Source of the DNA: Phyllosticta citribraziliensis | Lineage: Eukaryota | Length of the DNA: 64,000 bases | Assembly: GCF_038025025.1 (NCBI RefSeq) | Contig: NW_027117347.1 | Location: forward strand, 1,302,001-1,366,000 | Reading direction: 5' to 3' | Shown here: one piece after another, positions 1 to 64,000 of the stretch | How the letters are laid out: every line of letters begins with the position of its first letter | Position numbering within the stretch: the first letter of the stretch is position 1 | Translations under genes and position numbers: made by a program | Notes under the pieces: generated by a model | The model's database searches: none | Seen by the model: the letters and a program-made list of their open reading frames with translations, nothing else | Told to the model about the DNA's origin: nothing

Positions 1-2067
1 AAAGAATCTCAGATTCTTGTCCATCGTGCTTGGCCTTGTAGATACGCTGCAGGATTTCAAGGCCCGCTGTGCGGAGGTGATGAGATGGTGATCCGAGACT
101 TTCGATGACGGAATTCGTGAGCGTGTCCAGGTCGTCCCCGTCAACATTGAAGCTTTTCTCATTGGACCTGAGGTACTTGAGAGCGGAATCAGCAAAGATT
201 GGGTAGTGCATCAAGACATTTGACGACCGAGCCAGAGCCCCCCAGAGCTCGTTGCTCTGTTGCTCTTGGCCTTGGTGTTCTGCGACATATTTGAACCCTG
301 CACCCACGCCAAAAAGCTGTTGGGCAGGCAGCTTGGGAGAAATTTGTCCCAGAGATGCCAGGAGCAACTGGTAAAGCTCATCGTATACGGCCCTTTCCGT
401 CTTTTCCTCTACTGACGTGGTCCGTATGACGTCCAAGAGTCCATTTGGCCGAGCCGCATCTTGTTCTAATGGTTCTTGCGATGTTTGAGAGAGATTCCTG
501 AAGGAGGCGATTATGCTTTCTTGCCATGCTGTAGGGCACGCGAGGGAGGAATTATAAAAGCAGCCTCGACCAGCGAGGCGAGGAATCAGTACGGCCAGTT
601 GGTCACCACACTCATTCCATCTCGAAAGGATAAACCTGCGTGATGTCAGCTACGGCCATAGATCTTAGCAAATGTAATTTACCTTTTGAAATGGGGCAAC
701 AATAAACTTTGGAACCTTTCTGTCCCCAAATCGGCAAAGAAATTGCAAAACACAAGGAAATACTCCTGCCACGGTCCACTGGTGATTTTGTCGAGGATGC
801 GTAAGTGCGGGATTGCCACGTCCATGGGAGAACATTGCAGGATAACTGCCAGAGCAATCAAGGCCTCAGACGCTAGCCCGGACCCTTGTGACAAGACTTG
901 TGACTCGACACGAGCAATGATTTGCGCCATGGCCTTCAAGACCGCGTCCCAGTCTTGGATCCGGGTTCCTTTTCTCACACCGACCACAATGAGGAGGATA
1001 CGAGCGGCGTTTTGCAATCCCGTGTGGCCTAGTTCTGGGGTGGATTGTTGTATGGTCTCGAGAATAACCTCCAGGATAGGACTGAACGTATGAGAATTGG
1101 TGTGGTGAATGACTGCTGTCAAAACTCCTTGCAAAACGTCCATGGCAGGGCTGTCGTCGGGAACCAAAGAATCACTCTTAGCGTTTTCGGGGGCGATCGC
1201 TTGGGACATCAACTCTTTGACAACGGCTGGACCGCTGGAATGCAAGCCATTTTGTACACCCTTTATGGACTCGACGAAGAGGGACATGAGACCCTTCTGG
1301 TACTGGTAGGTATCCTCACGTTGTGCCACCTCTTCAAGATCTCGGATTGCATGGGTGACAAATATCCTCAATGGTTCGATATCCCTATGATACGAGGCAC
1401 CCGCCTTCCTGACTAGAAAGCTCATTGACTCGGCGGCGAATCTTGTGACGAAATGCTTCTGGTGTTTTTTGCCCAGCATGGGCGCCATGAGGTCGTATAG
1501 CGGCCGCAGGTCTGACACGAGAAGCCGAGAAAGGTATTTGAACAGCCATGCCATGCACGTAAAGCTCCATTCAATGGCCTCGATCGCCTGGTGCTTCGAC
1601 GCGATGCGACACAACAGCTGGACTGCCTTTCCAAAGTGCCTCTCGAATCTGGCTCCCAAGTCGTGTGCGAAATGCGAAACCAGACTCAGCAGCGGCTCCA
1701 GAGACAGCTCATCCTCCTTCTCGATGTATGCGAAGAGCAGGTCCATTATGCGGTCCTCATGGTGGAGGATTTGCGGCAAGCTCTCGCAGAATGGAGAGAG
1801 CTCGCGAGAGAAGTTTTGGAAGGATTGCGAGAGGTTGAGGTCCTTCCATTCTTCGAACGAGTTTTTCAAGTAGGAGGTCGAGGCGGAGAGGTCTTCCTCG
1901 TCGAAATGGCGGCGGGTCGTTCTTCGGACGGGATCGATGGAGAGTTTCGCGATGCGTTGGGAGAAGGATTCGTAGTAGTGCTGGCGCGAGGATTCGGTGC
2001 CGCCCTTTTTCCTCTGCTTGAAGGCTTTGGGTGCCTTTTTGTCTTTTCCTCGCGACATGGCGGCCAT
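1..2067 (-). CDS. UTP20: U3 snoRNP / SSU processome HEAT-repeat protein Utp20, 5' part; runs off the window start
   Basis: ORF 679..2067 begins with Utp20-type N-terminal motifs (YESFSQRIAKLSIDP, W-x-DLNLS, SLPQILHH, EWSFTCMAWLFKYLSRLL). A GTAAAT...CAG intron at 636..682 with a GCTGAC branch site leads into a further exon that extends toward base 1. Confidence 0.9.
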
Positions 2068-47866: not shown

Positions 47867-48907
47867 CAACACTCACGGGACAGAGCCGCTGAGCTCAACG
47901 GACGCTCCCGGGCCCAGTTGCGATGCCGAACAGCTTCTCCGTTGGTGTCGCTGAGCTCGTGAGCGACAGCTCCCTGGCCGCAGTCGTTAAGTCCGACAAC
48001 AGCCGCCTGGATGCAACTGCCGTGCTGGAAGCGGCTTTTCTTTGGGTTTACACTGTGGCGCTGACTGTTACCTTGACTCTGAGATTTGGATCTGGAATGG
48101 CGTTGGTTCTGCTTGGAAGTGTGATCACGCGGATTGATTTCTGGCGTTGGGATGGGCTTCAGGGTTGGGTGTGCTTCGACTTTCACTTGGCAGCGTTGCA
48201 AGTCGACGCCCGATCAAAGAGATGTTTACGAGTTTCGTTAAAATGAGATAGAAGTAAATGCGATAAGGCTTTGTTTCGACGAACGCCAGCCGTTCATGTG
48301 AGCAAGACACTCAGCCCTGGCGCTCATCCAACTTTGACAATTGAAATGCAAGCTCCCCTCAAGCAAAGCTTTTCCAACGCGAAATAAGGCAGTTCTGTTT
48401 TAGTGGTACCAGAGACCGCATTCAAGGTTTCAAACGGCGGTGTTGAGTCGAAACTTAGCTCTGTAGACCCTATGATACATCTCGGGGAGGCGGTTGGAAG
48501 GTTCATCCTTGCTTGGAGCAACCGAGTTGAACGAAACGGCGGGCCAGTTGACGGGAATTGGGGAATGGTCTTGAGAGGCTACCAGCATCAGTCCTACGGA
48601 AGTTATCATTAGGAATCTGGCAGAAGGAGATGGAAAAACGACCGAGCTTTTAGAGCAGAGAGACCAAACGTTTGCTTAACCAAGCCACCTACGGAAAGAT
48701 TGGTTGTTTCTCGCTTACTACCTAGCTTGCAGGCCGTTGTTTTGGGAATCCTATAATACCATCAAAACCTTGTTGACTTGGACATGGAGCTTCCTGGTAG
48801 TGGATTTCCTTGGGTGTTTGCTCGCGGTATTTATGTTAATTCTAGTCCCTGCTTTTCAAGAGCAAATATCCCCTTCATTCTTCGCAATCCATCAGCAGCA
48901 GGAAGAG

Positions 48908-49911
48908 ATGGCTTTGGTGTTGCCCACTTTGGGGGCGCAATATACCAATTCAGACGACGGGACCTTTTCACTGGCTGAGTTTCTAAAGAGCGATTTCTAG
49001 ATCGACAATAGAAGCTCTAATCTCATCATTACTTACCAAGACAGAAAATTTCACGTTTACAGCGTCTTACTATGTATAAGATCTGCCTTCTTTAGTAAAG
49101 AATGTAATCTAGGACTATCTTTTAAAGTTAGTTAAAGCATCCTCTACTCTTTAAAGATATAAGACTAAAGCTGACTTGCATTTACTTAGAAAGTCTTTAA
49201 GCAAGGAAAACAGGTTATCTTATTTAATAAAGAGGACCTACTTGCTATTTAGCTCATACTGTCCCCCTGCTATAGGTATAGTAAATAGGGACCTAGTAAA
49301 ACTTTAGCCACTACTAAATCTATATTTTTAAGCCTTAAAGAAAGGCTTTATTATATAGTCCTTCTATTTATAATTATAGATAAATATCTTTTCCTTTAGC
49401 TTAAGAGGATAGTAGTTCTAATCTTTAAATAACTATTAGAAGATTTGCTTTATAAAGTCTAGGCTAAGGAAGCAATCTATATTAATATCCCTATCTACTA
49501 AGAATTTCTCCCTATACTTAGGAAAACCATCGCCTATATTATAGAGTTTTCTAGTTAAGATAATTAGCTATACTATTTAGTTCTATATAGGGTTTTACAG
49601 TATATTAATAAACTTATACGCTAGATAAGCTTTATAGAGGAGCTTAATAGGATCTAAGACTTCTAGAAAGACCTAGTATAATTCTAGTATACTAATTCTA
49701 GACTTTAACTATATACGTGTCCTTCTTATAATAAAATTATTTAGATAGATTTAACTAGTTATCTAGTATTATAGAAACCTTTTAAATGCCCTTATTATAG
49801 TATAAGCTATAAGATTAAGTAGTAGAATTATAGATACCTAATATAATTAGATAGTTAGGGATATACTCCTAAGAATAATAAAGCTATAGTACTACCTACC
49901 TATAAAGAATA
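48908..49911 (+). pseudogene. RIP-inactivated BTB/zinc-ribbon gene (paralogue 3)
   Basis: Intact start MALVLPT...KSDF*, then SNLIITYQDRKFHVYSVLLCIRSAFFSKEC; intron ~49126..49189; then EDLLAI*LIL, LFIIIDKYLF, FIEELNRI*DF*K, TCPSY...FKCPYY. It is colinear with paralogue 2, shows no frameshift, and its stops are TAG/TAA. The 3' end is approximate. Confidence 0.85.
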
Positions 49912-51181
49912 GAGGGTAATTTTAGATTATATATATCCTATAAGTTTAAAGCTTAAAAATTCTATAGTTTAGTTACTCTATAGTCTTTTAGTTATTATTA
50001 TTATACTATAATCACGTCTTAGGTTTCCTATTATAGCCTAGGTTTATATAGACTAGGTAATTAGTAGTATAGGTAGATTAGATAGATATAATAAAACTAC
50101 CCTAAAGCTATAGGCTATATACGCGCCCTAGCTACTTCCTATAGTATAACTAGCTAGTTACTAATACCTCTAATACTATATAAATTTATATAGTATTATT
50201 TATAATATTAACTACTATACCTTATATTATAAAGGTATAGGTATATATATATACCTATACCTTACCTACTATTTTAACTTAGTAATAATAATCTATAGTA
50301 TTAAGTTTTAACTATCTCTCTCTCTATTTATACCTCTATTTATAGGTTATCTAGGCCTAGTAGCTATTTATCTTTACTATTATTACTATTACTATTATCC
50401 CTAGCTACTATATTACTCCTACTATTACTCCTATTATTACTCTCCTTATTATTAGTCTAAGGATAGGTAGGGAAAACCTCTTTATATAATATATCTATTA
50501 TTATAATAGGTATACACGCGCCTATATAAGTACTAGGGCCAGTATAGATAAACCTAGTATTATATAGTTATAGGAAGTATGAGCCTCACCTTAAGTAGTA
50601 GCCTACTATAGCTTAGGCTAAAACCTATAGGCTAGTACTAGCTACTATAGCCTAGTACTAGCTACTATAGCCCTAGGCAGATACTATATAATAGCCTATT
50701 AATACCTTACCTTTATAACTTACCTAATAATAACTAAGGACCCTTATATAAAGGATAAGAGGTAGAATAGTATAAAGGAAGGACTAGGAAATATATAAGT
50801 AGTAAGTATCTTTTATATTTTATTCTTTTAACTTATTAGATTTAATTAAGATATATATATATTCTCTAGTAGTTTACCTTTAGCCCTTACCTATATAATA
50901 AGAAATCTATAAGTTATAATAGATATAAAAGATTATTCTAAGTTTTAGCTCTATCCTACTTCTTTACCTATAAAGGTATTATAATATTTAACCTAAGTAA
51001 TATTATATATAGCTATAGTCTTATATAAGACTACTTATTACTTTTCCCTAGTAAACCTAAGTCATCTTTATTAGGCGCATTAGTATTATCTAAGGACTAA
51101 GGAGTATTAAGTATATATTAACTATAGAAGTCTTTAGTTAAGGCTATAGAGTAGTATATAAATATCTAGAAGGTATCCTAT

Positions 51182-51354
51182 TATTATAAGTTCGGTTAGG
51201 ACGTCTTTTTTTAAGTAAGGATTGTATTATTATTATCTCTATCTTAGCCCTAGGGCCCTACTTATTCTTATCTACTTACTTATACTACTAAGCCTGCTAG
51301 CTAGTACCTGCCTTGCTTACCTAAGGCGTCCCTAACTATCCGCGGACTATAATA
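51182..51354. repeat. Left LTR (3' LTR relative to gag-pol)
   Basis: Aligns without gaps to 62791..62963 with 11 differences, all transitions. The termini TATTATA...TATAATA are the RIP products of TGTCGCA...TGCGACA. Confidence 0.93.
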
Positions 51355-51501
51355 GTAGTAGCTAAAAATAAAGGAGTCGTTCTTAACTTAGAATTTACTA
51401 TCCTCCTCTACCTATTAAGAAACGTCCCCTTTTTAGGACAAGAAAGGAAAGAAAAGGAAGTAAAGAAAGAAAGAAAGAAATAAGTCTATACTAAGATGTA
51501 T

Positions 51502-54405
51502 TTAGTTACTAGCCTCTCTATCCTTATCTATATTAGACTAGTCCTTACTGCCCGTCCCGTCATCATTATAAGGCGGGGCTAATAGTAGGATAAGCAGGTT
51601 CTTCTATATATTAGTACTATAACCGCTTTTATCTTCTCCTAATACAGGCACGTAACGCATAATGGTGCCCGTATCTATATAGAAATTAGGGTGTATATAT
51701 CTACTAGGAATACGGCTTATAAACTAGTTAGTAAACCCTATATCGGCGCCTAGGAATTACTCTACTAGGCCATCTACATCTTATAGCATGTATAGCATGA
51801 GTAGCTATAAAGCGAGCAGTCTAGCGATCTATAGGTGTTTTAGGGGGTCATTATTAATATACTAGATTAGGCAGCTTAATCCTATATAGAAAGTAAGGTT
51901 GTTAACTACTATATTAGAGATAAACTTATTAGGGATGATTCCTCTAATAATAAGGTATATAGCTTAATAAGGTTCTATTATAAGGAGTATAGCTGTCAGG
52001 TCAGTATAGTAGTAGAGACAGCCTACTTTACCTAGGTTAGGATATTAATAGATCGCGTAGTTTACTAAGTATCCTAGGGAAGCGGCTTTAATAGTATTAG
52101 TAATATTACTATAGTTAGCAGGATCGTTATTAGGGATTAAAGGGTCTTTTATACTAGTACTAGAACTAATATTATTATTATTATTATTAGGTTTACCTAG
52201 AAGTGGCTTGTCCTAAGTTGTAAGTAGGGCGTCATCAGCGTCTACTATAAATATAGCATGATTAGGGTAGTCTAGGTAAACCTATAGTATAAGCTTATCT
52301 AGGCCTTTAGGTTTCTTATCCTATAATAACGTCTCCCTATTAGGAGGGGGCATACCTTAAAGCATCTCTATAAGCTCTACTTTATTATTATTAATAGGAT
52401 AGTTATATTAGTACCGACCCGCTCCTACTCTAGAAGTGTAAAACTTAGTGCCTATAGACTACTTATTTCTGCTTTTTATAAGGGTAGTAGTAAATATATA
52501 GATCTCTACTAGTAGCATGTTGCCTCTTATTGCGCGGTCTATTACGATAGTATAGTGGCCCTGCCCGTTCTATATTTCTTACTTATAAAGGTGCTGCTTT
52601 ATACCCTTAGGGACTGGGATGTCCTTATATATAGAGAAAAGCAGTCTATTATAACTATAGATAGTAAGGCCTCCTATTGCCTAGAGGTGCATCTTATTAA
52701 TATTAGGGTTACTAGGCTCCTTCCTACTAATATACTTATTATAGCCTTCCCTACTAATAAGTCTATACTGCTTTATAAGTATTATATACTAGATTTCACC
52801 GTCCTCATCTTAGTAGTATAAGGCCTGTCTATTAGGGTAATAATATAGGTTCAGTCCTCTATCTTTATAGTAAAATAGCTAGATTTAGTAGAGGTTGCGG
52901 AACTTAAGATCTGTTATTACTTAGTAAGCTAAGTAGTAGAGGGCCCCTATTATTATAGAGGACAGGCTTATACTAGGTAGGGGAAGGTACTAATCTTTAA
53001 TAAATATGCCTAAAATATAGTTAATAATAGGAAAGTTACTAGTATCTATAAGGAATATAGTGTCCTAGTCCTATTTACACTCTATAAAAGTCTTAGGGTT
53101 ATAGAATAGACGGTATATACTTTCCTTTAGGAACGACTAGTCACCTATTTTACCTTAGGGACTAACTACTACTAGTTTATCTAGTATAATATTAGGCGCG
53201 CCCCTTAGTTTCTTTAATTATATAGTAATATTTAGTGTGCTAGCGGCCTTCCCTATTTTCTTTATCTTCTATAGCATGGCTAGTCCCTTAGGGTCCGCCC
53301 TTTCTTTTCTCTACCTTAGTATTAAGGTATCTAGGAATTCCTTTCCTAAATCTACATCATTATTAGGAACTTAGGGCACGCGTTAAATTATAGCTATAAT
53401 AATTTTATTAGCATTATAGGAAGTATTAGTAAGTTAGTAGGTTTACTTTCTAATAGTAGAATTCTAGGCCTATAGGTCTATATTAGTAACGTCTACCGTT
53501 TTATAGCTTACCTTAACCTATAGAGTTACTCTAATCGCACCAAAATTAGGAGGCGTCTGTATTAGGTAAGAAGCTAGTATTCTTATACTAAGAAGGCTTA
53601 TAGCTAGGTTAGGGGTAAGACTAGGTTAAGGTATAGTTTCTAGTAAGAAGGTAGGCTTCTACTATCTCTTATCCTTAGTATCCTCCTCTAATTCCTTAGT
53701 AGTAAAGCGCTTGCGCTTATTACTATAATTAGTGTTATACTTCCTTATATATATATCTAGTATACTGCTATCTTTATTATCTTAGTAGAAGCTATAGGTC
53801 TGGCATTTTAAGCCTCTAGCCCCTAACACGCCGTGTCCTTATATAGTTATAGATGGTGCATTTATTATTAGTATATCTACTATTAGCGTCGCGGTGCTGT
53901 TATATAGGATAGTATTAAAGAAGTCTGCTATCTCTTTATTATTAGTAACTTAGTTTAGCGCGTCCTATTATAAACACTTACTAGTATTAGGAGAAAAGCA
54001 GTTATTCTACACTTCTAGTCTAGGGATGGCGTCATTTTACTTAAGGGTAGACGCGCTATTACTAGTAGTAGGGGTGTTATTTAGTATTACATTTACTAGG
54101 ACCGCGCCCGTATTAGGTGCTATATTATTAGGTACTATATTATATAAAAGGTCCTGCCGTTCTTATAGGCTAGTAATAGCTATTAGGGTAGCACTAGTAA
54201 GTCTATTCCTATTATAGTCTAAAGGCCAACTATATTAGTCTCTTAGGCGGCTTATACGTTCACGTTATAGGTAAGGTTATATAGTAAGGTTAGTATAGGG
54301 TTATAAGTTAATATTCTATAGACCCTAATATTAATTAGGCACTTATACTATAGCTAGTACTAGTCGCCCTACTAACGCACGGTCCTCTTCTTGCTTAGTA
54401 ATGCT
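51502..54405 (-). pseudogene. Extra ~970-codon ORF of unknown function downstream of pol inside the LTR element
   Basis: Three segments translated by eye (~53600-54405, ~52200-52500, ~51502-52170) all give protein-like text in one frame that differs from the pol frame, with TAA/TAG stops typical of RIP. Confidence 0.65.
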
Positions 54406-54455
54406 TAAGTATATAAAATATTTTTAGTAGTAATATTCTTATAGGCCTCCCTTTA

Positions 54456-57400
54456 CTAGGAGGTACTTAGGCGCGCCTTACTAGCTCCTTCTATAAGATA
54501 GGTGCTAACTTAGTACTCTTCTTTAGTAGCTTAGGGTTTCTTCTCCTTATTCTTTATACCTAGTAGACGACCTTACTGCTTTAGCACTATAGGGATAACC
54601 ATTTCTAGTAGCGCATATAGTAGTTTATCATATAATAGCCTGCCCTATAGTAGTTTATTACGCGCCTTAGTAGGTAGCAGCTTAACTATATTATCATTTT
54701 CCTCTAGGTCCTTAGGCACTATAGTAGTGTATTAAGGCGGTCCTGGTTTCTATTAGGGCCTATACTAGTCTAGCTTTACTATTATCTCCTTATTTATCCT
54801 TATATTACATTCTTTAATAAGATCTATTGCCCCCTCTAAGTCGTCTAAGTTATACTATACTTAATGCTATAGCCCCTAGCCTTTCTAGTTAACTAAGTAT
54901 TATAGTTTCCTAGTCCTATAATGTTTATATCTATCTACTAAGCGTAAGATTTTATACTTAGGCGCTGGCTTATTAGTGTTAATAATAGGTCCTAGCTCTA
55001 ATATAGTATTATACTTAAAAGGGTCGGGGCTGTCCTTTTCCTTTTCTAATTAGGAGATGTTAATAACTAGATAAATCCTTAAACTACTAGGGATAGCCAG
55101 TTTATAGGCCTATATACTAACTACTTATATTACTTTATAAGGTCCTATATGTGTGTTCTAGAGTTTCTATAGTAGGTTACTATATACCTTATAACTATAG
55201 TATAACTATAGATACACCTTGTCCCCTAGTTTAAATTAGACTAGATAGTACTTGCCGTCGTATTACTCCTTTTATACTACTACTATAAAAGCGAGGGCTT
55301 CTTAGGCTTTAGCATAGTAGTCTAAATAGAGGGTTTTTAAGTCTATATCCTTAGTAGATTCTACCTAGTTATACCCATCGTCCTATAGGTTAAATTTATA
55401 TAAGATTTTATAGGGGGTACATCCTATTAAGGTGTTTTAAGAAGAATTTATAGTCCCCTAGATATAAGGGAGAGCGTCTACCTAACTCTAATTAGGGTTA
55501 GCTATAATAAAGAAGTATAGGGTGATCTCTACTATCTAGTTAGTATACTTACTTTATCTATCTATCTAGGGATAGTAAGTAGTAGTAGTATTTAGATCGA
55601 TTTTTATTATTTTAAAAATGCTACTTATAAATCGCCCTAGCTAATAGGAGTCCCGGTCTATAATTATAATAGAAGGTAGACCCTATCTATATCTATAGAG
55701 TTCTTTAAACTATAAACCTCTCTAATTACCTATAGTCTAGGTCTCTTAACTAGGGATTAGCAAGATTGCTTTAGAAAATTTATAGGTTATAGTTAGAAGT
55801 ATATTAAAACCCCCTTTACTATATATAGGCAGCTTAGTAATAAAATTAATATATATAGTAAAGAAGGGGACCTTTACTACTATAATAGAGACTATTAACC
55901 TATTAGGTTTATATTAAGGTGTTTAGTTAATATAACAGTTAGGATAGTAATTAATATACACCTATATCTACTAGTATAGGTGCCTTATATAGTAGTAAGT
56001 ATAAATATAATCTATATATTAGTCTATACCTTAATAGAAACGCTAATTATATACTTATTTAAATACTACTTACTTATAGCTTTAGGAAATATATAGCTGT
56101 TCTTACTAGTCTCCTAAGTAGTCTATAAAGTAGATTAGCCCTTTCTATAGAAAGAAGTATAGACTAGAGACTAGTCCTTTATAGGGGTCCTTATTTTCTT
56201 CTATATCCCTAAGAGGAACGGGCTCTATAGTAGTAATAGGGGCTGGCGTTGCTATAGGTATAGGGTTTATACTAGCAGGTTACTCTATAGTTATTATAGG
56301 GTTTACTAGCCTATAGTTATATTCCTACTACTACTTAAGGGCCTGCTCTAAAATATAGAGCACCTTTACCTATTATATATTAGTACTATACGCTATATAG
56401 AGCTCTTACTTAAATCTATTAGAGAGCTCTACTAATACTATATAGAAGTAAGTAGTAGCGTCGCTACCTTCTAAGGTATACTAAACTAGGTCCTTATTAT
56501 TAGGGAATTCTATAGTATTAAGGGTATTATCTATATCTATAGTCGCCTTAGATAGTAATTAGCTTAGTATATTAGGGATGATATAGTTCCTCCCTAGCTA
56601 GTACTATACCTTTAATAGATACTAGCTTAGGTATTAGCTTATATATATTAGACGTAGGTTTAGCTGCTCTATAGATTAGGAGTTTCTAAAGTATAGCTGT
56701 TATATAATAGTAGTAACTACTAAATAGTTAGTAAATACCTAAGTATCCTTAGAGGCCTATATTAGTATTTATAATTTCTTAACCGCCTAAACGACTCCTA
56801 TTATCTTAAGCTTAGTAGTCTAGTATCTCATCTTAGCTCCTAAAAGGCGCTAGAATAGAAAGGCTATTAGCTTAATAGACTACTTTAGAAAGTCCTTAGC
56901 CTTCTTAAGCTAATTTATAGTAGGGTTTTCACCCTCTACGTTCTCTATATTTATAGTAGGAGTCTAGTCTTCTATAACTAGTTTAAGATTACCTTTTATA
57001 TAGTAGGCTATTATGCTAAAACCTAACTCTTTACTAGCATCTATATTAATAAAGAGGGGTCTCTTAGGCACGTAGTAAAAACGCCATTATATTTTATAAA
57101 GGGTCGTTTATATAGCCTTAAATAATGCTACTAGTACTAGGGAGTCTAGTAGTGCCTATACCACTATATATTAGCAGCGCGCTTATTTATCTTTAGGAGC
57201 GCTTTATAATAGCACGGTCTTTATAGCTTCTAGTAGTTCTACTAGTTATATATAGTAGGGATAGTTATCTTATAGCTAGCTAGTAAGCCCTATAAAGGTT
57301 TCTAGTTCTTAGAGGGTCCTTAGGAATTTAAGGTCTTTTAGAGCTTAGATCTTAGCTTCTAATATTATAATACTAAATCTAGATACCTACTATTCTAATA

Positions 57401-59110
57401 GCATAATAGATAGGTATCCTAACTAGGACTTCTTAGTACTTAGGCTTATATTTATACTATTAAGGATAGTAAATACCTTTTTAAGGTAATCTAGGTATTT
57501 TTCTAATATTTTAGAGAAAATAGTAATATTATTAATATATATTTATATAAAAGCGTAGCAGTCCTAAAAAAGAGTATTATACTACTATTATATATACTAT
57601 ATAGAGTTATAGTATCCTATTAGGGCCACGTTTAACTATTTAGCACTCTAGTAGATAAGTATAATCAGCTTATATTAGTTGTTAGGATGGATCTGCTACT
57701 AATAGAAGAAAGAGATAGCATCTACTACTAAGATATAAAGATAGCCCTAGATATTAGAGATAATATTAGCAGCTAGAGAGAGTAGCTATAAGTCCTTCTT
57801 ACTAATAGTATTAAGGGCTTATATATCTATAACTACTTATCCTTTCTACTCTAGGGTCCTATTCTCTCTAGGGACTAGCTTCTATACTATAAATATAGAG
57901 AAGCTAAGATAAGTATCTCTATATACCTATTCTACTTTTCCTTATTTATATATAGGGTTAAGCGTGGCGTCTTAGAATTTATAGTCCCTTTAGGATGTAG
58001 GGTATAGTCTTTAATATTTAAAATATTTATACTAGCCTAGGACTAATAGTATCCTTATCTAATCCTTTTTAGGAACCTTAATAAATCCCTTTTAATTATA
58101 GAAAAGATCTTAAAACTAATCTACTAGTTTCTAGTATAGTAACTAGACCTTAGGGGTCCTAAATATAGTAATGCTATTATTAAGCTTGGCCTCCTTTATA
58201 ATAGGGATAGTAGGGTTTAAACTAGCTAGGCTATATTCTATATCTATAAGGCGGTACGCCCTATTAAATTCTATAGTAATAATGCTACCTAGCCGTGTAT
58301 TCTAGGAGATTATAAGAGGCCGATCTAAGTTATTTCTAGTAATAATCTAGTTTATATCTATACTAGTAACTATAGTATAAAGGGTACCCCCCTTTTATAG
58401 GAAGGGTATAGGATGTGCGGTTTTATTAGGATAGAACTTATATACTTAGTAAGGGAGGTCTAGTTCTAGAATTTTAATAAGCAGCTTTATCTAGAACTAT
58501 AGGGGTATCGTCGTATTCCTTATAGTATATATATATTAGTAGATAGGAGTAGAAAACAGCTTAGTTATTATACTAGTATTTAGTCCCTTAGGCCCTATAT
58601 ATAGCTATACTACTTAGTTCTAACTAATATTAATAATTACCCCTTTAAGATGTAGGAGGTTATTCCCTATAAGTAGGGGGATATTTAACTTATTAGTTAT
58701 CTAAGTATAGTAGGGAAGAAAGCTAAGAGCCTATCCTATCTTAGTTTATCTAGATAAGTAAAGGGGAAGTATTATATAGTTAGCGCATTTTATCTTATAT
58801 CCTACTCTAGTAATAATTATAGGTTTCTTAAGTATTATTACCCTAATATTAGGGAGCTTTTCCTTTAAAAACATTCTATTTACTATTAAGGATAAGGCGC
58901 CTATATTAAGATATCTAATATCTACTATTTCTATAGGAGTCAGCCTAAAACTAATCTCTATTAATTAATATTTAGGAAATAGAGGCAGATCATCCCCTAT
59001 ACTAAGTCCTATAAAGGCTATAGACGACTCTAAGATTAGTACCTTTAGTTCTATATTAGATATAGCCTTATCCTTTATCTTCCTATATTTACTATTAACT
59101 ATATTAAACC
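54456..59110 (-). pseudogene. RIP-damaged pol (protease, RT, RNase H, integrase, chromodomain); ends approximate
   Basis: Protease YLNIGA (=LDTGA, ~58900); RT VVDAISFFY**, LNVALIGYYNS and YINNI (=YIDDI, 57525..57539); RNase H IDASKELGFS (~57020-57050); integrase TTYYP*IDR*SKYTN*IVE (=HPQTDGQSERTNQ, ~55530-55580); chromodomain YKILRLVD...YLVN*KG*G (~54810-54956). Protease, RT and chromodomain were checked to share one frame. Confidence 0.9.
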
Positions 59111-62100
59111 CTAATATAGTAAGGTAGACTGTTTAGTAATAGCATCTCTAACTAAGTATAAGAGCGCCTTACCTATAGCGCTATATTACCTATACTATAA
59201 GGCTAAGAGGAAAGATTAACGCCTACTAGAGGGCTATAACTACTAGAGTAAGGACATACTAAGAGGAGACGACGTATTACTTAGTTCTATTATCCTAATA
59301 GCTTTTAGGTACTAGTTATCTACTAACTAGATAGTGCTCTATTTAGGTCCTAAATTCTTAAGCGGCCTAATACTTACTTAGTTTAAACTATATTTAAAAC
59401 CATTATCCCTTAGGTACTAGTATAACTTGTATTTAGAAGGGAAGCTTATCTAGTAGCTATTATATACTTTTTAGGGATTAAGTACTATTATATTACTACT
59501 AGGAGTATAGTTAAAAGCGTCGTCCTAGATAAGTATATATTTATACTAGGAGTAGTAGTTGGCTCCTATTATAATTATAGGCTTACTATTATTTAACTAT
59601 AGCTTCTCCTTATTAGTTATAGGGGTCTCTATACTAGTATCCTTATTACTTTTAGTATCTTTACTTTCCTTATTACTATCCTCGCGCTTACTTTTAGAGC
59701 CATTCTAGGTGTAGTATTATATATATATAGTAGGTTTATAGTTATAGTTATAGTTATAGTCGCAACAATCCTTAGGCTTTAAGTAGGACCTAGAACTAGA
59801 CCCTTTTAGGTTAGGAGTAGGGAGTATACCCTACTTAGAGTAGGTTACCTATTTTATATTACTTAGTCCCTTAGCACTTATATTATACTAGGACGCTAAG
59901 TGCGCTCTATTAGATTAATTAAAAGGCTAGCTAGTAGTCTATATTAAAGTGCATCTCTAATTCTAGCCCTTAGGGAAGAATGCCTTACTAGTAGTAGTTA
60001 TATTAAAATATTAGGATAGGTATTCCTAAGTCTACTAGTAACTCTTAATATTCTTAATAAATACTTAGACTGTAGTGTTCGCTATAGGTTTAGGGATCTA
60101 CTACTAGAAGTAAGGGTTAATACGTGTATAGGTATTAGCTAACTAATTATATATAGTAGGGAAACTAGCAGCTCATCCTAGATATATATAGGTAATAATA
60201 AAGTCCCTTATACTTTTAGTATAGACCTCTAGGAGCCTAAAGTGTACTCTATTTAGTACTTTAATAGCTTTATATTATGTCATGCTAAAGTCTTTATATA
60301 GTAGTAAAGTCTAATTATTAATACTATATTTAGTACGCGTAAAAGCTCGGTCTTCCTCTATAAGTTAGGAGGCATACTATATATTTAATAATCCTTTTAG
60401 GCACTTCTATAGGTTGGTATAGATTAGATCTACTCTATAGGTAGCACAAGCTATTAAGGCGCTATTAATAAACTACTCTATAGCGCAGTATAAGACCTTC
60501 CCTTATTTAGTTATACTACCTCTATAGCTGACATCTTCTTCTAATAGATTAGGGTTAAAGTAACTAATATTATCTAGGTAGAAATGCTAGGTTATTCTTC
60601 TAGTATATAGTCCTAATACCTAGTTATACTCCTTATCGTCACCTATACCCTATAGGGGAATAAACTAAAAGGTAGTAGACTATTTATCCTCTTCTCTATC
60701 CCTAGGGGGAGGGGAGCTTAATAGGAGTGGCTCTTCTATTTTATACTAGGTGTACCTTTTCTAGTATCTCTATCCCTAGTTTTTACTAGAGAAATAGTTT
60801 CCCTCCTATAACTATAGTAGTCTTAGTACTACTTAGCCTCTACCTTAGGGCGCGCTCATTTTAAGTATAGATAGGTATATGCTAAGCTTCTTAAGTTACT
60901 TATTAACCCCCTTATTTATTATAGTAAGGTTTGTTATCTATGCTTTCTATTATTTAGAGAATATATCTTAGAGCATGTCTAGCTTTACTCCTAAAGATTC
61001 TAGGGTTATAGTAGGCTACTAGATCTCCTTAGTCTGGTCTATAGCGCTATACCGGTCGCGTGTATATAGTAGTGTCATATCACGTAGGGGCAGCTAGTTA
61101 TAGTATATACACCTTAGGGGAGGATTCTAGTTTCCTAGTAGCTATTAGTAGGAGAAAGGAAGACCGCCGTGTAGGTATTAGCTAAAACCTAGACCCGTGC
61201 CACTTTAAAAAACATTAGGTGGTTAACTAAAGGGTTAGTAAGAGCGGCCTTAAGGAAGCCTATAGCTAGGTAGGAAGGGAGGTTATCTAAACTAGCCTTT
61301 ATAAGTATAGCTAGTACCTTTACTAAAATTTAGTAGGATATAGTAGTCTTTAAAATTGTCGTCTATAGAAGAATAAGGACTCTATAGATTACGTTCTAGT
61401 TTATTATTTATAGGCGGGCTACTAGTATAGGTGACCGGCTGCTTTCCTTTAGAAGGTTTTAGTTAGGAAGTATAAGGGGGCGTTGCCTGCTTATCTTAGG
61501 GCTAGTACGGCCTTATACTTATATATATCTATAACTAGAGTTATTAATGGGTGCGTATAGAAGTAGAGTAATATAAAGAAGATGAGCGTCCTTAAGTTAG
61601 CGCGGGCGTTAGTAAAACGGGTTGTTAAGGCTCTATAGATAGTGTAGGTTATAGATAAATTGATATATAGTGTAGAGATTTTAATTAAGGTTATCTATAA
61701 AGTGAGGTGATGGGCGTTCGTGCCTAAGAAGAGGGTAGATCTACTAAGTAGATAATTAGTTGGCCCTTTCCCTATCTAGGCGTAGTATAGCCCCTAGTAG
61801 GAGGAGTGGGTCCTAATAGTTCCTAGATTAACCCTAGTATAACTTTTAGGGTAATTATAGCGGGTCCTAAAGGCGACTAGGGCGCTGTCTTAGCTTATAG
61901 CTAGGGAGGCGCTTTAAGGACCGTACCTAGAGCTAATACCTCTAGTATAGTAGGACGTCCTAGTATAGTTAGAGAAAGGCGCTAGAATAGATTATATAGG
62001 GACTAGGATACCCTTAAGCCTATACTTATATTATGTTAGCCTAGCTCCTTACGCGGCGTAGTTAGGACTAGGTTTAGCAGTAAACCTACTATATTAGTAG

Positions 62101-62700
62101 ATATTAGCGTGCTTAGTATTATAGTCCTTATACCCTTAGCTAGAGCCTCTTCTATACGTTCCTATTCTGTAACTACCAGGCAATTCTCTAGGAATAATTT
62201 AGTATAGGCGGTATTAACTCATTCTAAGGCTTACTAGAAAGTGGCCTGGTTTATACCTCCTATAGAATCCTAACGCACTAGATAATCTAGGCGCCTTTAA
62301 GATGCCTTAGCTTAATAAGTAGACACTCCCACGCTGCCTAGGGGCTTAAATATTTCTATAAGGAGGTTAATATAAGTCCTTACTACTAGGGTGATCTGTT
62401 TAAGCTATTACTTATATTTACTATAATAAAGGAAGGCCTTAAGCTGCTAGGTAGATAGTATATCCTCTTCTAAAACTAATATAGTAAACTTATTATTTAG
62501 GGACCGTGTTGCGGACGGTTCCTTATACTAGTACTAAGCATTAAAGGGAGGGGTAAGCGTAGTAGAAGTAAGGGTCCTACTATAACGACGCTAGTACTAG
62601 GTTATATAAGAAGGGAGATCCTTACTAGGCGCTATATAGAAGTGTATTATTAGCTATTTTAAGGAGATCTTCCTAGGTTTTAGTAGAAGTAGACTTATAG
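59105..62700 (-). pseudogene. RIP-damaged gag with probable long Pro-rich N-terminal extension; start uncertain
   Basis: DNISYFNPNL...GKVLYCAIE*FIN (=DDIGYFDP-type gag motif, ~60470-60580) in a frame offset from pol. The upstream ~2 kb translates as low-complexity Pro/Ser-rich sequence. Confidence 0.6.
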
Positions 62701-62790
62701 TATTTACGCGTCAGCAGTGATAAAGGTCCTAGATACAGGGGGGATGCTATAGTAAAAGGAAGTGCTATAGCGCTTTTAGCTACTAAATAA

Positions 62791-62963
62791 TATTATAAGT
62801 TTAGTTAGGACGTCTTTTTTTAAGTAAGGATTATATTATTATTATCTCTATCTTAGCCCTAGGGCCCTACTTATTCTTATCTACTTACTTATACTGCTAA
62901 GCCTACTAGCTAGTACCTGCCTTACTTACCTAAGGCGTCCCTAACTATCCGCAGACTGCGACA
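62791..62963. repeat. Right LTR (5' LTR relative to gag-pol)
   Basis: Ends in unmutated TGCGACA followed by the TSD CCTAT. Confidence 0.93.
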
Positions 62964-62968
62964 CCTAT

Positions 62969-64000
62969 CTATAACCTACTTAAGGGATATTCTAAGTAGA
63001 AGACTATAAAGATAGTATAGCTAAGAATAAAGCTAATATATCTAGTACTACTAAAGGTATTAGTACTAGTTAATTAACTTAATAAGATTTATATAAAGGG
63101 ACTAAAGATTTATATAATACTAGATACTTATTAAATAATAATAAGAGAGGACCTACCCCTATTCTCCTATATAATTTTTACTTAGTCTTAGTAGTAGAGG
63201 TAAAAGAATATACCTAAGACCTAGGGTTAACTTATATAGTTTAAGCTCTAGTTATAGAGGCATTTATAAAGGTACTATACTTAGATATTAATTAATTTAA
63301 ATCTAAGATTATATCCTTAAATAAGTCTTAAGTATAGTAGTAACTAAACTATATATAAAGGTAGAACTAGGCTCTTAAGTAAATACTCTTAAACTATACT
63401 AATAGACTTAGAGAAGTTCTAAGGGAAGGATATATTAGGCCCTCTTTATTAGCTTAGTACCTAAGACCTATTACCCTCTCTTAAGATCCTTCTACCTATA
63501 TAAGAGAAACTACTACTAAAACCTCTACTTTATCTTTAAGTAGTAAGAAATACTAAAGTAGTAAGGTTCCTAATCCTCCTCTTCTTACTAATAGAAAAGA
63601 CCCCTTATATAAATACTAGACCCTCCTTATATAAAATAAAATTAAATAAAACTATAATTACTTTACTAAAGATATAGTAGAGGAGACTAAATAGAATATT
63701 ATAGGTTATATTATTTCCTATATTAGTAGAGAAGTCTTATATTACCTAACTCCTTTCCTTACTTCTTATATAAAGGCTAATAAAGTTACTTTAAATAAGG
63801 ATATCTTTAAATTCCTAGATAACCTCCTCTAAAGTCTATATAAATATAAGGATATAAAGAAGTAGTTATACTCTCTTATATACTATATCCCTATAGACCT
63901 TTAGAAGTTTTAATTAAACTTTATATAATTAGCCTTAAATATAGATCTTCCCTAAGAATAGTAGAAAGAGGACTTTTATAATATAATAGATCCTCTTCTT
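62969..64000 (+). mobile_element. RIP-damaged host LTR retrotransposon (gag region), interrupted by the chromovirus and continuing beyond the window
   Basis: From 63563: KVPNPPLLTNRKDPLYKY*...NKIK*NYNYF...YIISYISREVLYYLTP, the RIP product of the fungal gag motif K.PDPP.LTDGKDP..E.W...K...N.DHF...Y..SR..GEA..HL.P. Its 5' part is presumably ~50500..51181. Confidence 0.7.

Follow-up and report, generated by a model that had tools for sequence, protein, structure and literature searches.

A putative primer-binding site and its inverted copy at the two inner junctions of a degraded Ty3/gypsy element in Phyllosticta citribraziliensis

Priming of plus-strand DNA from an RNase H-resistant polypurine tract (PPT) is, to our knowledge, treated as a constant of retroviruses and of retrotransposons with a long terminal repeat (LTR), and the variation in priming that we know of lies with the primer of the minus strand (full tRNA, half tRNA, self-priming, bipartite sites). 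A 64,000-base stretch of the Phyllosticta citribraziliensis genome (assembly GCF_038025025.1, contig NW_027117347.1, positions 1,302,001 to 1,366,000; hereafter the window, whose own coordinates are used throughout) raises the question of whether the plus strand, too, may be primed in another way. A degraded Ty3/gypsy element in this window, with its sense on the minus strand, has a putative primer-binding site (PBS) just inside its 5' LTR and an inverted copy of that site just inside its 3' LTR, at the place of a PPT.

The element and its inner junctions

A direct-repeat search of positions 49000-64000 returned one pair (51179-51348 and 62788-62957; 170 nt, 95% identity). In a purine/pyrimidine alphabet, which is blind to the transitions left by repeat-induced point mutation (RIP), the pair is exact over 173 nt (100%) at 51182-51354 and 62791-62963; letter by letter, the two LTRs differ at 11 of 173 positions, all 11 by transitions. 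On the sense strand the LTR starts with TG (TGTCGC in the right copy, the left copy being more RIP-mutated at that end). When Logan contigs of four public runs were compared with positions 51000-63200, contigs from three of the four (two in X1, two in X3, and one in X5) joined 51176 to 62964, skipping 11,787 bases, with five letters that fit either side. Positions 51182-62963 are one 11,782-bp insertion with a 5-bp target-site duplication and, because these contigs bridge both flanks directly, the flanking repeat is also present elsewhere without the element. No second LTR-like repeat was found within the 11,782-bp unit, so nothing points to a nested element. The features at its two ends are the following:

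51177..51181, no strand: target-site duplication CCTAT, left copy; the same 5-mer stands at the right flank, and empty-site contigs agree
51182..51354, minus strand: 3' LTR, 173 nt, a direct repeat with 62791-62963
51355, minus strand: 1-nt spacer (G on the plus strand) between the 3' LTR and the inverted PBS copy, read from the sequence
51356..51370, minus strand: inverted copy of the putative PBS at the place of the PPT, 12 nt exact (51356-51367) plus 3 transition-equivalent
62771..62785, minus strand: putative PBS, 5 nt after the 5' LTR; 62774-62785 is the exact complement of 51356-51367
62786..62790, minus strand: 5-nt spacer (AATAA on the plus strand) between the putative PBS and the 5' LTR, read from the sequence
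62791..62963, minus strand: 5' LTR, 173 nt, a direct repeat with 51182-51354
62964..62968, no strand: target-site duplication CCTAT, right copy, matching the left; empty-site contigs agree

The orientation of the element comes from its coding content. Stop codons are abundant in all six frames, and translations were searched with stops read as X. With the window's own RIP-damaged translation, the only significant Pfam match was to the integrase SH3 domain SH3_Tf2-1 (PF24626), in a minus frame, and word-indexed protein searches matched gypsy-type polyproteins. The best homologue, P0006 (2,124 amino acids; E 2.3e-123, 90% of the query), is simply the nearest intact homologue of the window's pol; it contains reverse transcriptase (PF00078), RNase H (PF17917/17919), integrase (PF17921), SH3 (PF24626), and chromo (PF00385) domains. 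In a tblastn search its residues 656-2041 aligned collinearly with 59051 to 54795 in a single minus frame, and through this collinearity the element has the Ty3/gypsy order of reverse transcriptase, RNase H, integrase, and C-terminal chromodomain. An earlier sequence-only reading of this DNA had placed gag-pol on the minus strand, which the P0006 alignment, the domains of the homologue, and the SH3_Tf2-1 match all bear out. Because gag-pol runs on the minus strand, the right LTR is the 5' LTR and the left LTR the 3' LTR. The element is, judged by its sequence, a long RIP-killed Ty3/gypsy chromovirus with minus-strand sense.

The 12-mer TAGTAGCTAAAA occurs once per strand in the window, at 51356-51367 (plus strand) and at 62774-62785 (minus strand). 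The sequence-only reading had it 1 nt inside one LTR, with its exact reverse complement 5 nt inside the other, and both coordinates are correct. After the 5' LTR the sense strand reads TTATT followed by TAGTAGCTAAAAGCG. This right site stands in PBS position and, by its letters, looks like a PBS. Its TAG can be the RIP product of TGG, as had been suggested earlier, and RIP indices in the region are strong; with TAG read as TGG, the first 7 nt equal the start of the PBS in two distant relatives introduced below (L033 and L051; TGGTAGC...), as well as the start of a tRNA-Met type PBS quoted in a passage of PMC5445492. ARAGORN found no tRNA in the 64-kb window or in 30 retrieved loci. The left site, taken in sense orientation, complements the putative PBS, has the polarity of a tRNA 3' end, and is followed by one C and then by the 3' LTR. 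If transitions are allowed, the inverted match between the two sites grows from 12 to 15 nt (GCG against ATA) and no further.

A PPT adjoining the 3' LTR is missing: only 5 of the 15 nt that precede this LTR on the sense strand are purines, in agreement with the earlier observation that this strand is pyrimidine-rich next to 51354. RIP cannot have erased a purine tract here, because it makes transitions only and never turns a purine into a pyrimidine. The purine runs that the sequence-only reading assigned to the plus strand are present there, one at about 51435-51480 and a second at 62736-62745. The first, made of purines only and microsatellite-like with AAAG/AAGG units, becomes a stretch of pyrimidines within the 3' untranslated region (UTR) when the element is read in sense.

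Contigs from other copies of the family cover both junctions. At the left junction a contig of run X2 aligns on both sides of 51368, where a 2-nt gap was called, and at the right junction X1 record 8 covers 62518-62801 and X3 record 24 covers 62753-62948. The other copies of internal parts, which come with two organism labels, are diverged, mostly by C>T and G>A among the 40 differences listed of 942. As for the LTR itself, its ends are mutually inverted over 8 nt in purine/pyrimidine space, subterminal inverted repeats lie near its start (GTTAGGACG) and near its end (CGTCCCTAAC), and a central palindrome surrounds CTAGCTAG; the LTR of another copy, seen in run X2, starts TATTACAAG and is less mutated than the window copy.

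Chance, pairing, and possible roles of the mirrored sites

In the 15-kb AT-rich block around the element 525 pairs of inverted 12-mers were counted, which amounts to 2.3e-6 per position pair, and at this empirical rate an inverted 12-mer would arise in the two 20-nt junction zones with a chance of about 9e-4. The sequence-only reading had named convergence in AT-rich RIP DNA as one outcome that would undo its proposal; at a chance of about 1e-3, convergence is unlikely.

The 12-mer alone would form an RNA duplex of -13.5 kcal/mol in the present, RIP-mutated sequence. Complementarity of the 5' end to the 3' end was not found beyond the 15-mers: the best RNA duplex of the following 90 nt (-30.1 kcal/mol) was reached by random segments in 99 of 400 and in 115 of 400 cases. 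A 130-nt duplex that includes the 12-mer ranked 4th of 200 controls, but carries little weight because the controls were unscreened for overlap with the query's own complement. Two larger structures were considered and rejected. A longer gapped inverted repeat made of the purine run, AGTAAA, and the 12-mer did not stand out, local alignments of the next 60, 100, and 150 nt being similar to those of random RIP segments, and junction hairpins combining the LTR subterminal motif with the 12-mer folded no better than shuffles (z +0.4 to +1.0).

Our reading is that the left site stands in for the PPT or serves to pair the 5' and 3' parts of the RNA. We give a probability of roughly 35% to the combined form, in which the site is a working part of the element that primes the plus strand in place of the PPT and can also pair in the RNA. 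The genomic RNA would carry the PBS complement before U3, and minus-strand DNA would then carry the PBS sequence beside the U3 complement. The tRNA that had primed the minus strand could anneal to minus-strand DNA at this place with its 3' end facing U3, and its extension through U3-R-U5 would yield a plus-strand strong-stop DNA starting 1 nt from the LTR boundary. The start of extension would fix the boundary 1 nt from the primer, the usual task of a PPT primer. The two sites could, moreover, pair with one another in the genomic RNA (over 12 bp, or up to 15 before RIP), forming a circle that brings the ends together like CYC5/CYC3 of Ty1. Because a tRNA would prime the plus strand at the left site, the mirrored copy, its place, and the missing PPT would be explained in one step. 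We consider it doubtful that this extends to a whole family that dispenses with the PPT, in which both strands are primed from mirrored PBSs by a single tRNA, or by a tRNA-like part of the RNA of the element itself, and the sites also circularise the RNA. If true, this would be a first hint of variation in plus-strand priming, and a simple scheme with a single primer for the two strands; in RIP-affected fungal genomes such elements would then be misjudged or misoriented by annotation tools that require a PPT.

Several points weigh against a working role for the left site. Both sites were read letter by letter in a single, dead copy, and the identification of the PBS draws on its position and its TGG-like start. 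With spacers of 5 nt at one end and 1 nt at the other, integrase would need to remove unequal lengths. The 12-mer's 9-mer core, TAGTAGCTA, is a common RIP-type word in the block, with 8 copies (4 + 4), a commonness that the estimate of about 9e-4 already absorbs because the rate was counted empirically in the same block. A tRNA-primed plus strand is not described in the open-access literature examined, and a limited open-access text search, which is no proof of absence, found no inverted PBS copy replacing a PPT.

The distant relatives add to these points. Scans of viral contigs with P0001 and P0006, and of metagenomes with P0006 alone, returned no DNA of close relatives. A profile of four homologues led to 80 metagenome loci with a pol 26-36% identical to P0006, of which 35 have some direct-repeat pair; we kept 15, with both repeats away from contig ends and at least 85% identical, and the 20 left out were mostly collapsed-LTR contigs. 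All 15 are purine-rich before the 3' LTR (8-14 of 15 nt, and 11-14 in the 10 with LTRs starting TG). The mirrored PBS is found in none of the 15, the longest inverted match in their 30-nt junction zones being 3-7 nt. They measure 4.0-10.0 kb, against 11,782 bp for the element, which stands outside them on both counts, PPT and inverted match. A normal PPT in intact relatives was the other outcome that the sequence-only reading had named against itself; purine-rich stretches do appear in 15 of 15, in elements whose distance keeps them from deciding what is shared within the element's own family. When all 80 loci were scanned for inverted repeats on either side of a TG..CA unit, 147 matches came up; the 40 listed look like noise, and no PBS-type pair was seen among them. 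In six chromoviruses among the loci (L011, L014, L024, L026, L029, and L039) the 5' LTR is not followed by a TGG-type PBS; four of them have TATAATCTTGATCTC in common there and the other two GTATATTGATACTTC. A strong G-rich PPT is present in all six, which are likely to be self-priming Tf1/sushi-type elements.

The mirrored copy might instead be a non-functional accident, in which an ancestral rearrangement or template switch put an inverted PBS in the place of the PPT and left a dead-end variant that spread, if at all, by duplication. The reading of the sites in this copy only, the purine-rich stretches of the relatives, and the unusual length of the element, with unexplained extra sequence on both sides of gag-pol, speak for an accident. 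The intact LTR ends and the clean 5-bp duplication, however, mean that the element arrived by integration in this form; other copies from two labelled organisms span the same junction regions, and by reasoning we found no simple reverse-transcription error that would give direct LTRs together with an inverted PBS here. On balance we regard an accident as somewhat improbable. We hold it to be unlikely that the site is a cyclisation or dimerisation element only, its 3' copy pairing with the PBS region in cis or between packaged RNAs while the plus strand starts from an unrecognised primer. The 12 nt over which the 5' leader and the 3' UTR are exactly complementary, at -13.5 kcal/mol even after RIP, fit such a role, and excerpts of PMC3592414 describe a long-range pairing in Ty1, near the PBS and the 3' end, that is needed for reverse transcription. 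Cyclisation alone nevertheless leaves the missing PPT and the 1-nt distance to the U3 boundary unexplained, the pairing would hide the PBS from the tRNA, and the complementarity stops at the 15-mer, beyond which random segments pair equally well.

Self-priming of the Tf1 type, in which the PBS would pair with the element's own LTR transcript and the mirrored copy would be a by-product of the inverted LTR ends, appears very unlikely. It is common in fungal Tf1/sushi chromoviruses according to parts of PMC6317226 and PMC2864245, the LTR does have subterminal inverted repeats, and in purine/pyrimidine space LTR positions 146-160 (plus strand) agree with the 15-mer's complement at all but one of 15 positions (14 of 15). 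That match, however, is exact at just 7 of 15 letters and lies on the antisense strand of a minus-sense element; the background expectation for a 14-nt run is about 0.02-0.07, and the same pattern occurs in the flanking repeat. The sense strand reaches at best 12 of 15 in purine/pyrimidine space, its longest run being 6, which is no convincing counterpart of the transcript-start complement of Tf1-type elements, and the junction hairpins do not exceed their shuffles, which leaves positions 146-160 as a weak lead for self-priming. Pure chance in RIP-biased TA-rich DNA is, if anything, less probable still. It can draw on the eight copies of TAGTAGCTA in the block and on the fact that oddities were being sought, but set against these are the low expectation for the two junction zones, three more positions that agree by transitions, and 15 control elements that reach 7 nt at most. 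The sequence-only reading is borne out in the positions and polarity of the two sites; the symmetric priming or pairing of the transcript ends that it had proposed is hypothetical. In the present sequence the pairing is confined to the 12-mer, and the LTR sense strand offers no convincing self-primer.

Coding content and setting of the element

Four stretches between the two junctions have coding character:

54795..59051, minus strand: pol of a Ty3/gypsy chromovirus, protease to chromodomain, RIP-degraded; tblastn with P0006, one frame
59052..61016, minus strand: presumed to hold gag and the start of the polyprotein (N-terminal part); extent extrapolated from the unaligned P0006 residues 1-655
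51520..54198, minus strand: extra open reading frame (ORF)-like stretch downstream of pol, 893 codons, by its low stop density
61400..62300, minus strand: coding-like stretch upstream of the presumed gag start, by stop density

By collinearity with P0006, the polyprotein presumably starts near 61000. The extra ORF-like stretch (54198-51520) lies in a second minus frame, where stops number 4-8 per 100 codons, compared with 9-27 for the remaining two, and it ends about 165 nt from the left LTR. HMMER found no match to it among 1.84 billion protein representatives, nor did it match Pfam; coming after the chromodomain, these 893 codons may be an accessory gene of this retrotransposon family. At 61400-62300, stops number 5-7 per 100 codons in one minus frame and 6-22 in the remaining two, and this stretch likewise gave no Pfam match. 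Contigs of run X5, which carries the second organism label, depart from the window at 59718-59766, leaving 210-255 nt unattached and showing a gap of 5 nt at 59731. The segment 59736-59766 contains short purine/pyrimidine palindromes, and related elements may differ in structure around this region.

The element lies in an AT-rich block at about 49000-64000, with a GC content of 0.26-0.40 against 0.48-0.69 in the rest of the 64,000-base window. The drop is sharp at 48500-49000, where gene-like, GC-equilibrated DNA gives way to an AT-rich RIP block that continues to the end of the window, a switch that looks like an isochore-type boundary. The element has a TpA/ApT ratio of 1.94 and a (CpA+TpG)/(ApC+GpT) ratio of 0.26, compared with 0.52 and 1.27 at positions 1-48000; because these RIP indices are strong and all LTR differences are transitions, its decay is attributed to RIP. 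The repeat that hosts the insertion (51000-51181 and 62964-63200) is high-copy, with a summed contig depth of about 59-110 in runs X1-X3, against 0-12 inside the element in the public runs. At 50340-50680 the RIP-type word TAGTAGCTA and its complement recur several times in this flanking repeat, which is why the 9-mer core of the 12-mer is common in the block; among these copies are two inverted 9-mers, at 50358 and 50402, separated by 35 nt, and CTAGTACTAGCTACTATAGCC in tandem duplication.

Comparison with known systems

The nearest known systems are the fungal Ty3/gypsy chromoviruses (Metaviridae; Tf1/sushi-type elements and relatives). The element resembles them in its direct LTRs of TG..CA type, 5-bp target duplication, pol order of reverse transcriptase, RNase H, integrase, and chromodomain, and site in PBS position just inside the 5' LTR. 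Unlike them, it has an inverted copy of that site in place of a PPT, a length of 11.8 kb, and an ORF-like stretch without homologues after pol.

Ty1, a copia-type element, keeps a PPT. Excerpts of PMC3592414 describe a pairing in Ty1 that links a stretch beside the PBS with one close to the RNA 3' end and is needed for reverse transcription. The complementarity of the 5' and near-3' parts of the RNA in CYC5/CYC3 has its counterpart here in 12 nt exact, or 15 with transitions, whereas the 5' partner in Ty1, as described there, adjoins the PBS and is not the PBS itself. For Ty3 and Drosophila Gypsy, passages of PMC5371799 and PMC1635307 report a second, 3' site complementary to another part of the tRNA, so that the tRNA bridges the ends. 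The element shares with these a second tRNA-related site near the 3' end of the genome that could link the RNA ends; its 3' site differs in being the reverse complement of the putative PBS, of opposite rather than the same polarity, and would bind the tRNA on minus-strand DNA only.

Tf1 primes from the start of its own transcript, as stated in portions of PMC6317226, PMC2864245, and PMC5445492. There, too, part of the RNA of the element itself is complementary to the PBS, but that part is the transcript start within the LTR, and here the complement stands just before the 3' LTR. Fungal GalEa copia elements have a palindrome at the PBS position (PMC5445492, in part). In general description the element resembles RLG_Rolly of Leptosphaeria maculans, a Ty3/gypsy family of 11,875 bp with a 235-bp LTR in RIP-affected AT-rich isochores (PMC3105345, from its Table 4); compared by description only, the two are close in size (11,875 vs 11,782 bp), agree in RIP context and superfamily, and differ in the LTR (235 bp vs 173 bp). 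In the Dictyostelium Skipper chromoviruses, according to parts of PMC5006619, a polypyrimidine stretch replaces the PBS. Skipper and the present element are both chromoviruses with a non-canonical inner LTR junction at which non-canonical priming is suspected; unlike in Skipper, the PBS here is canonical-looking, and it is the PPT side that is odd.

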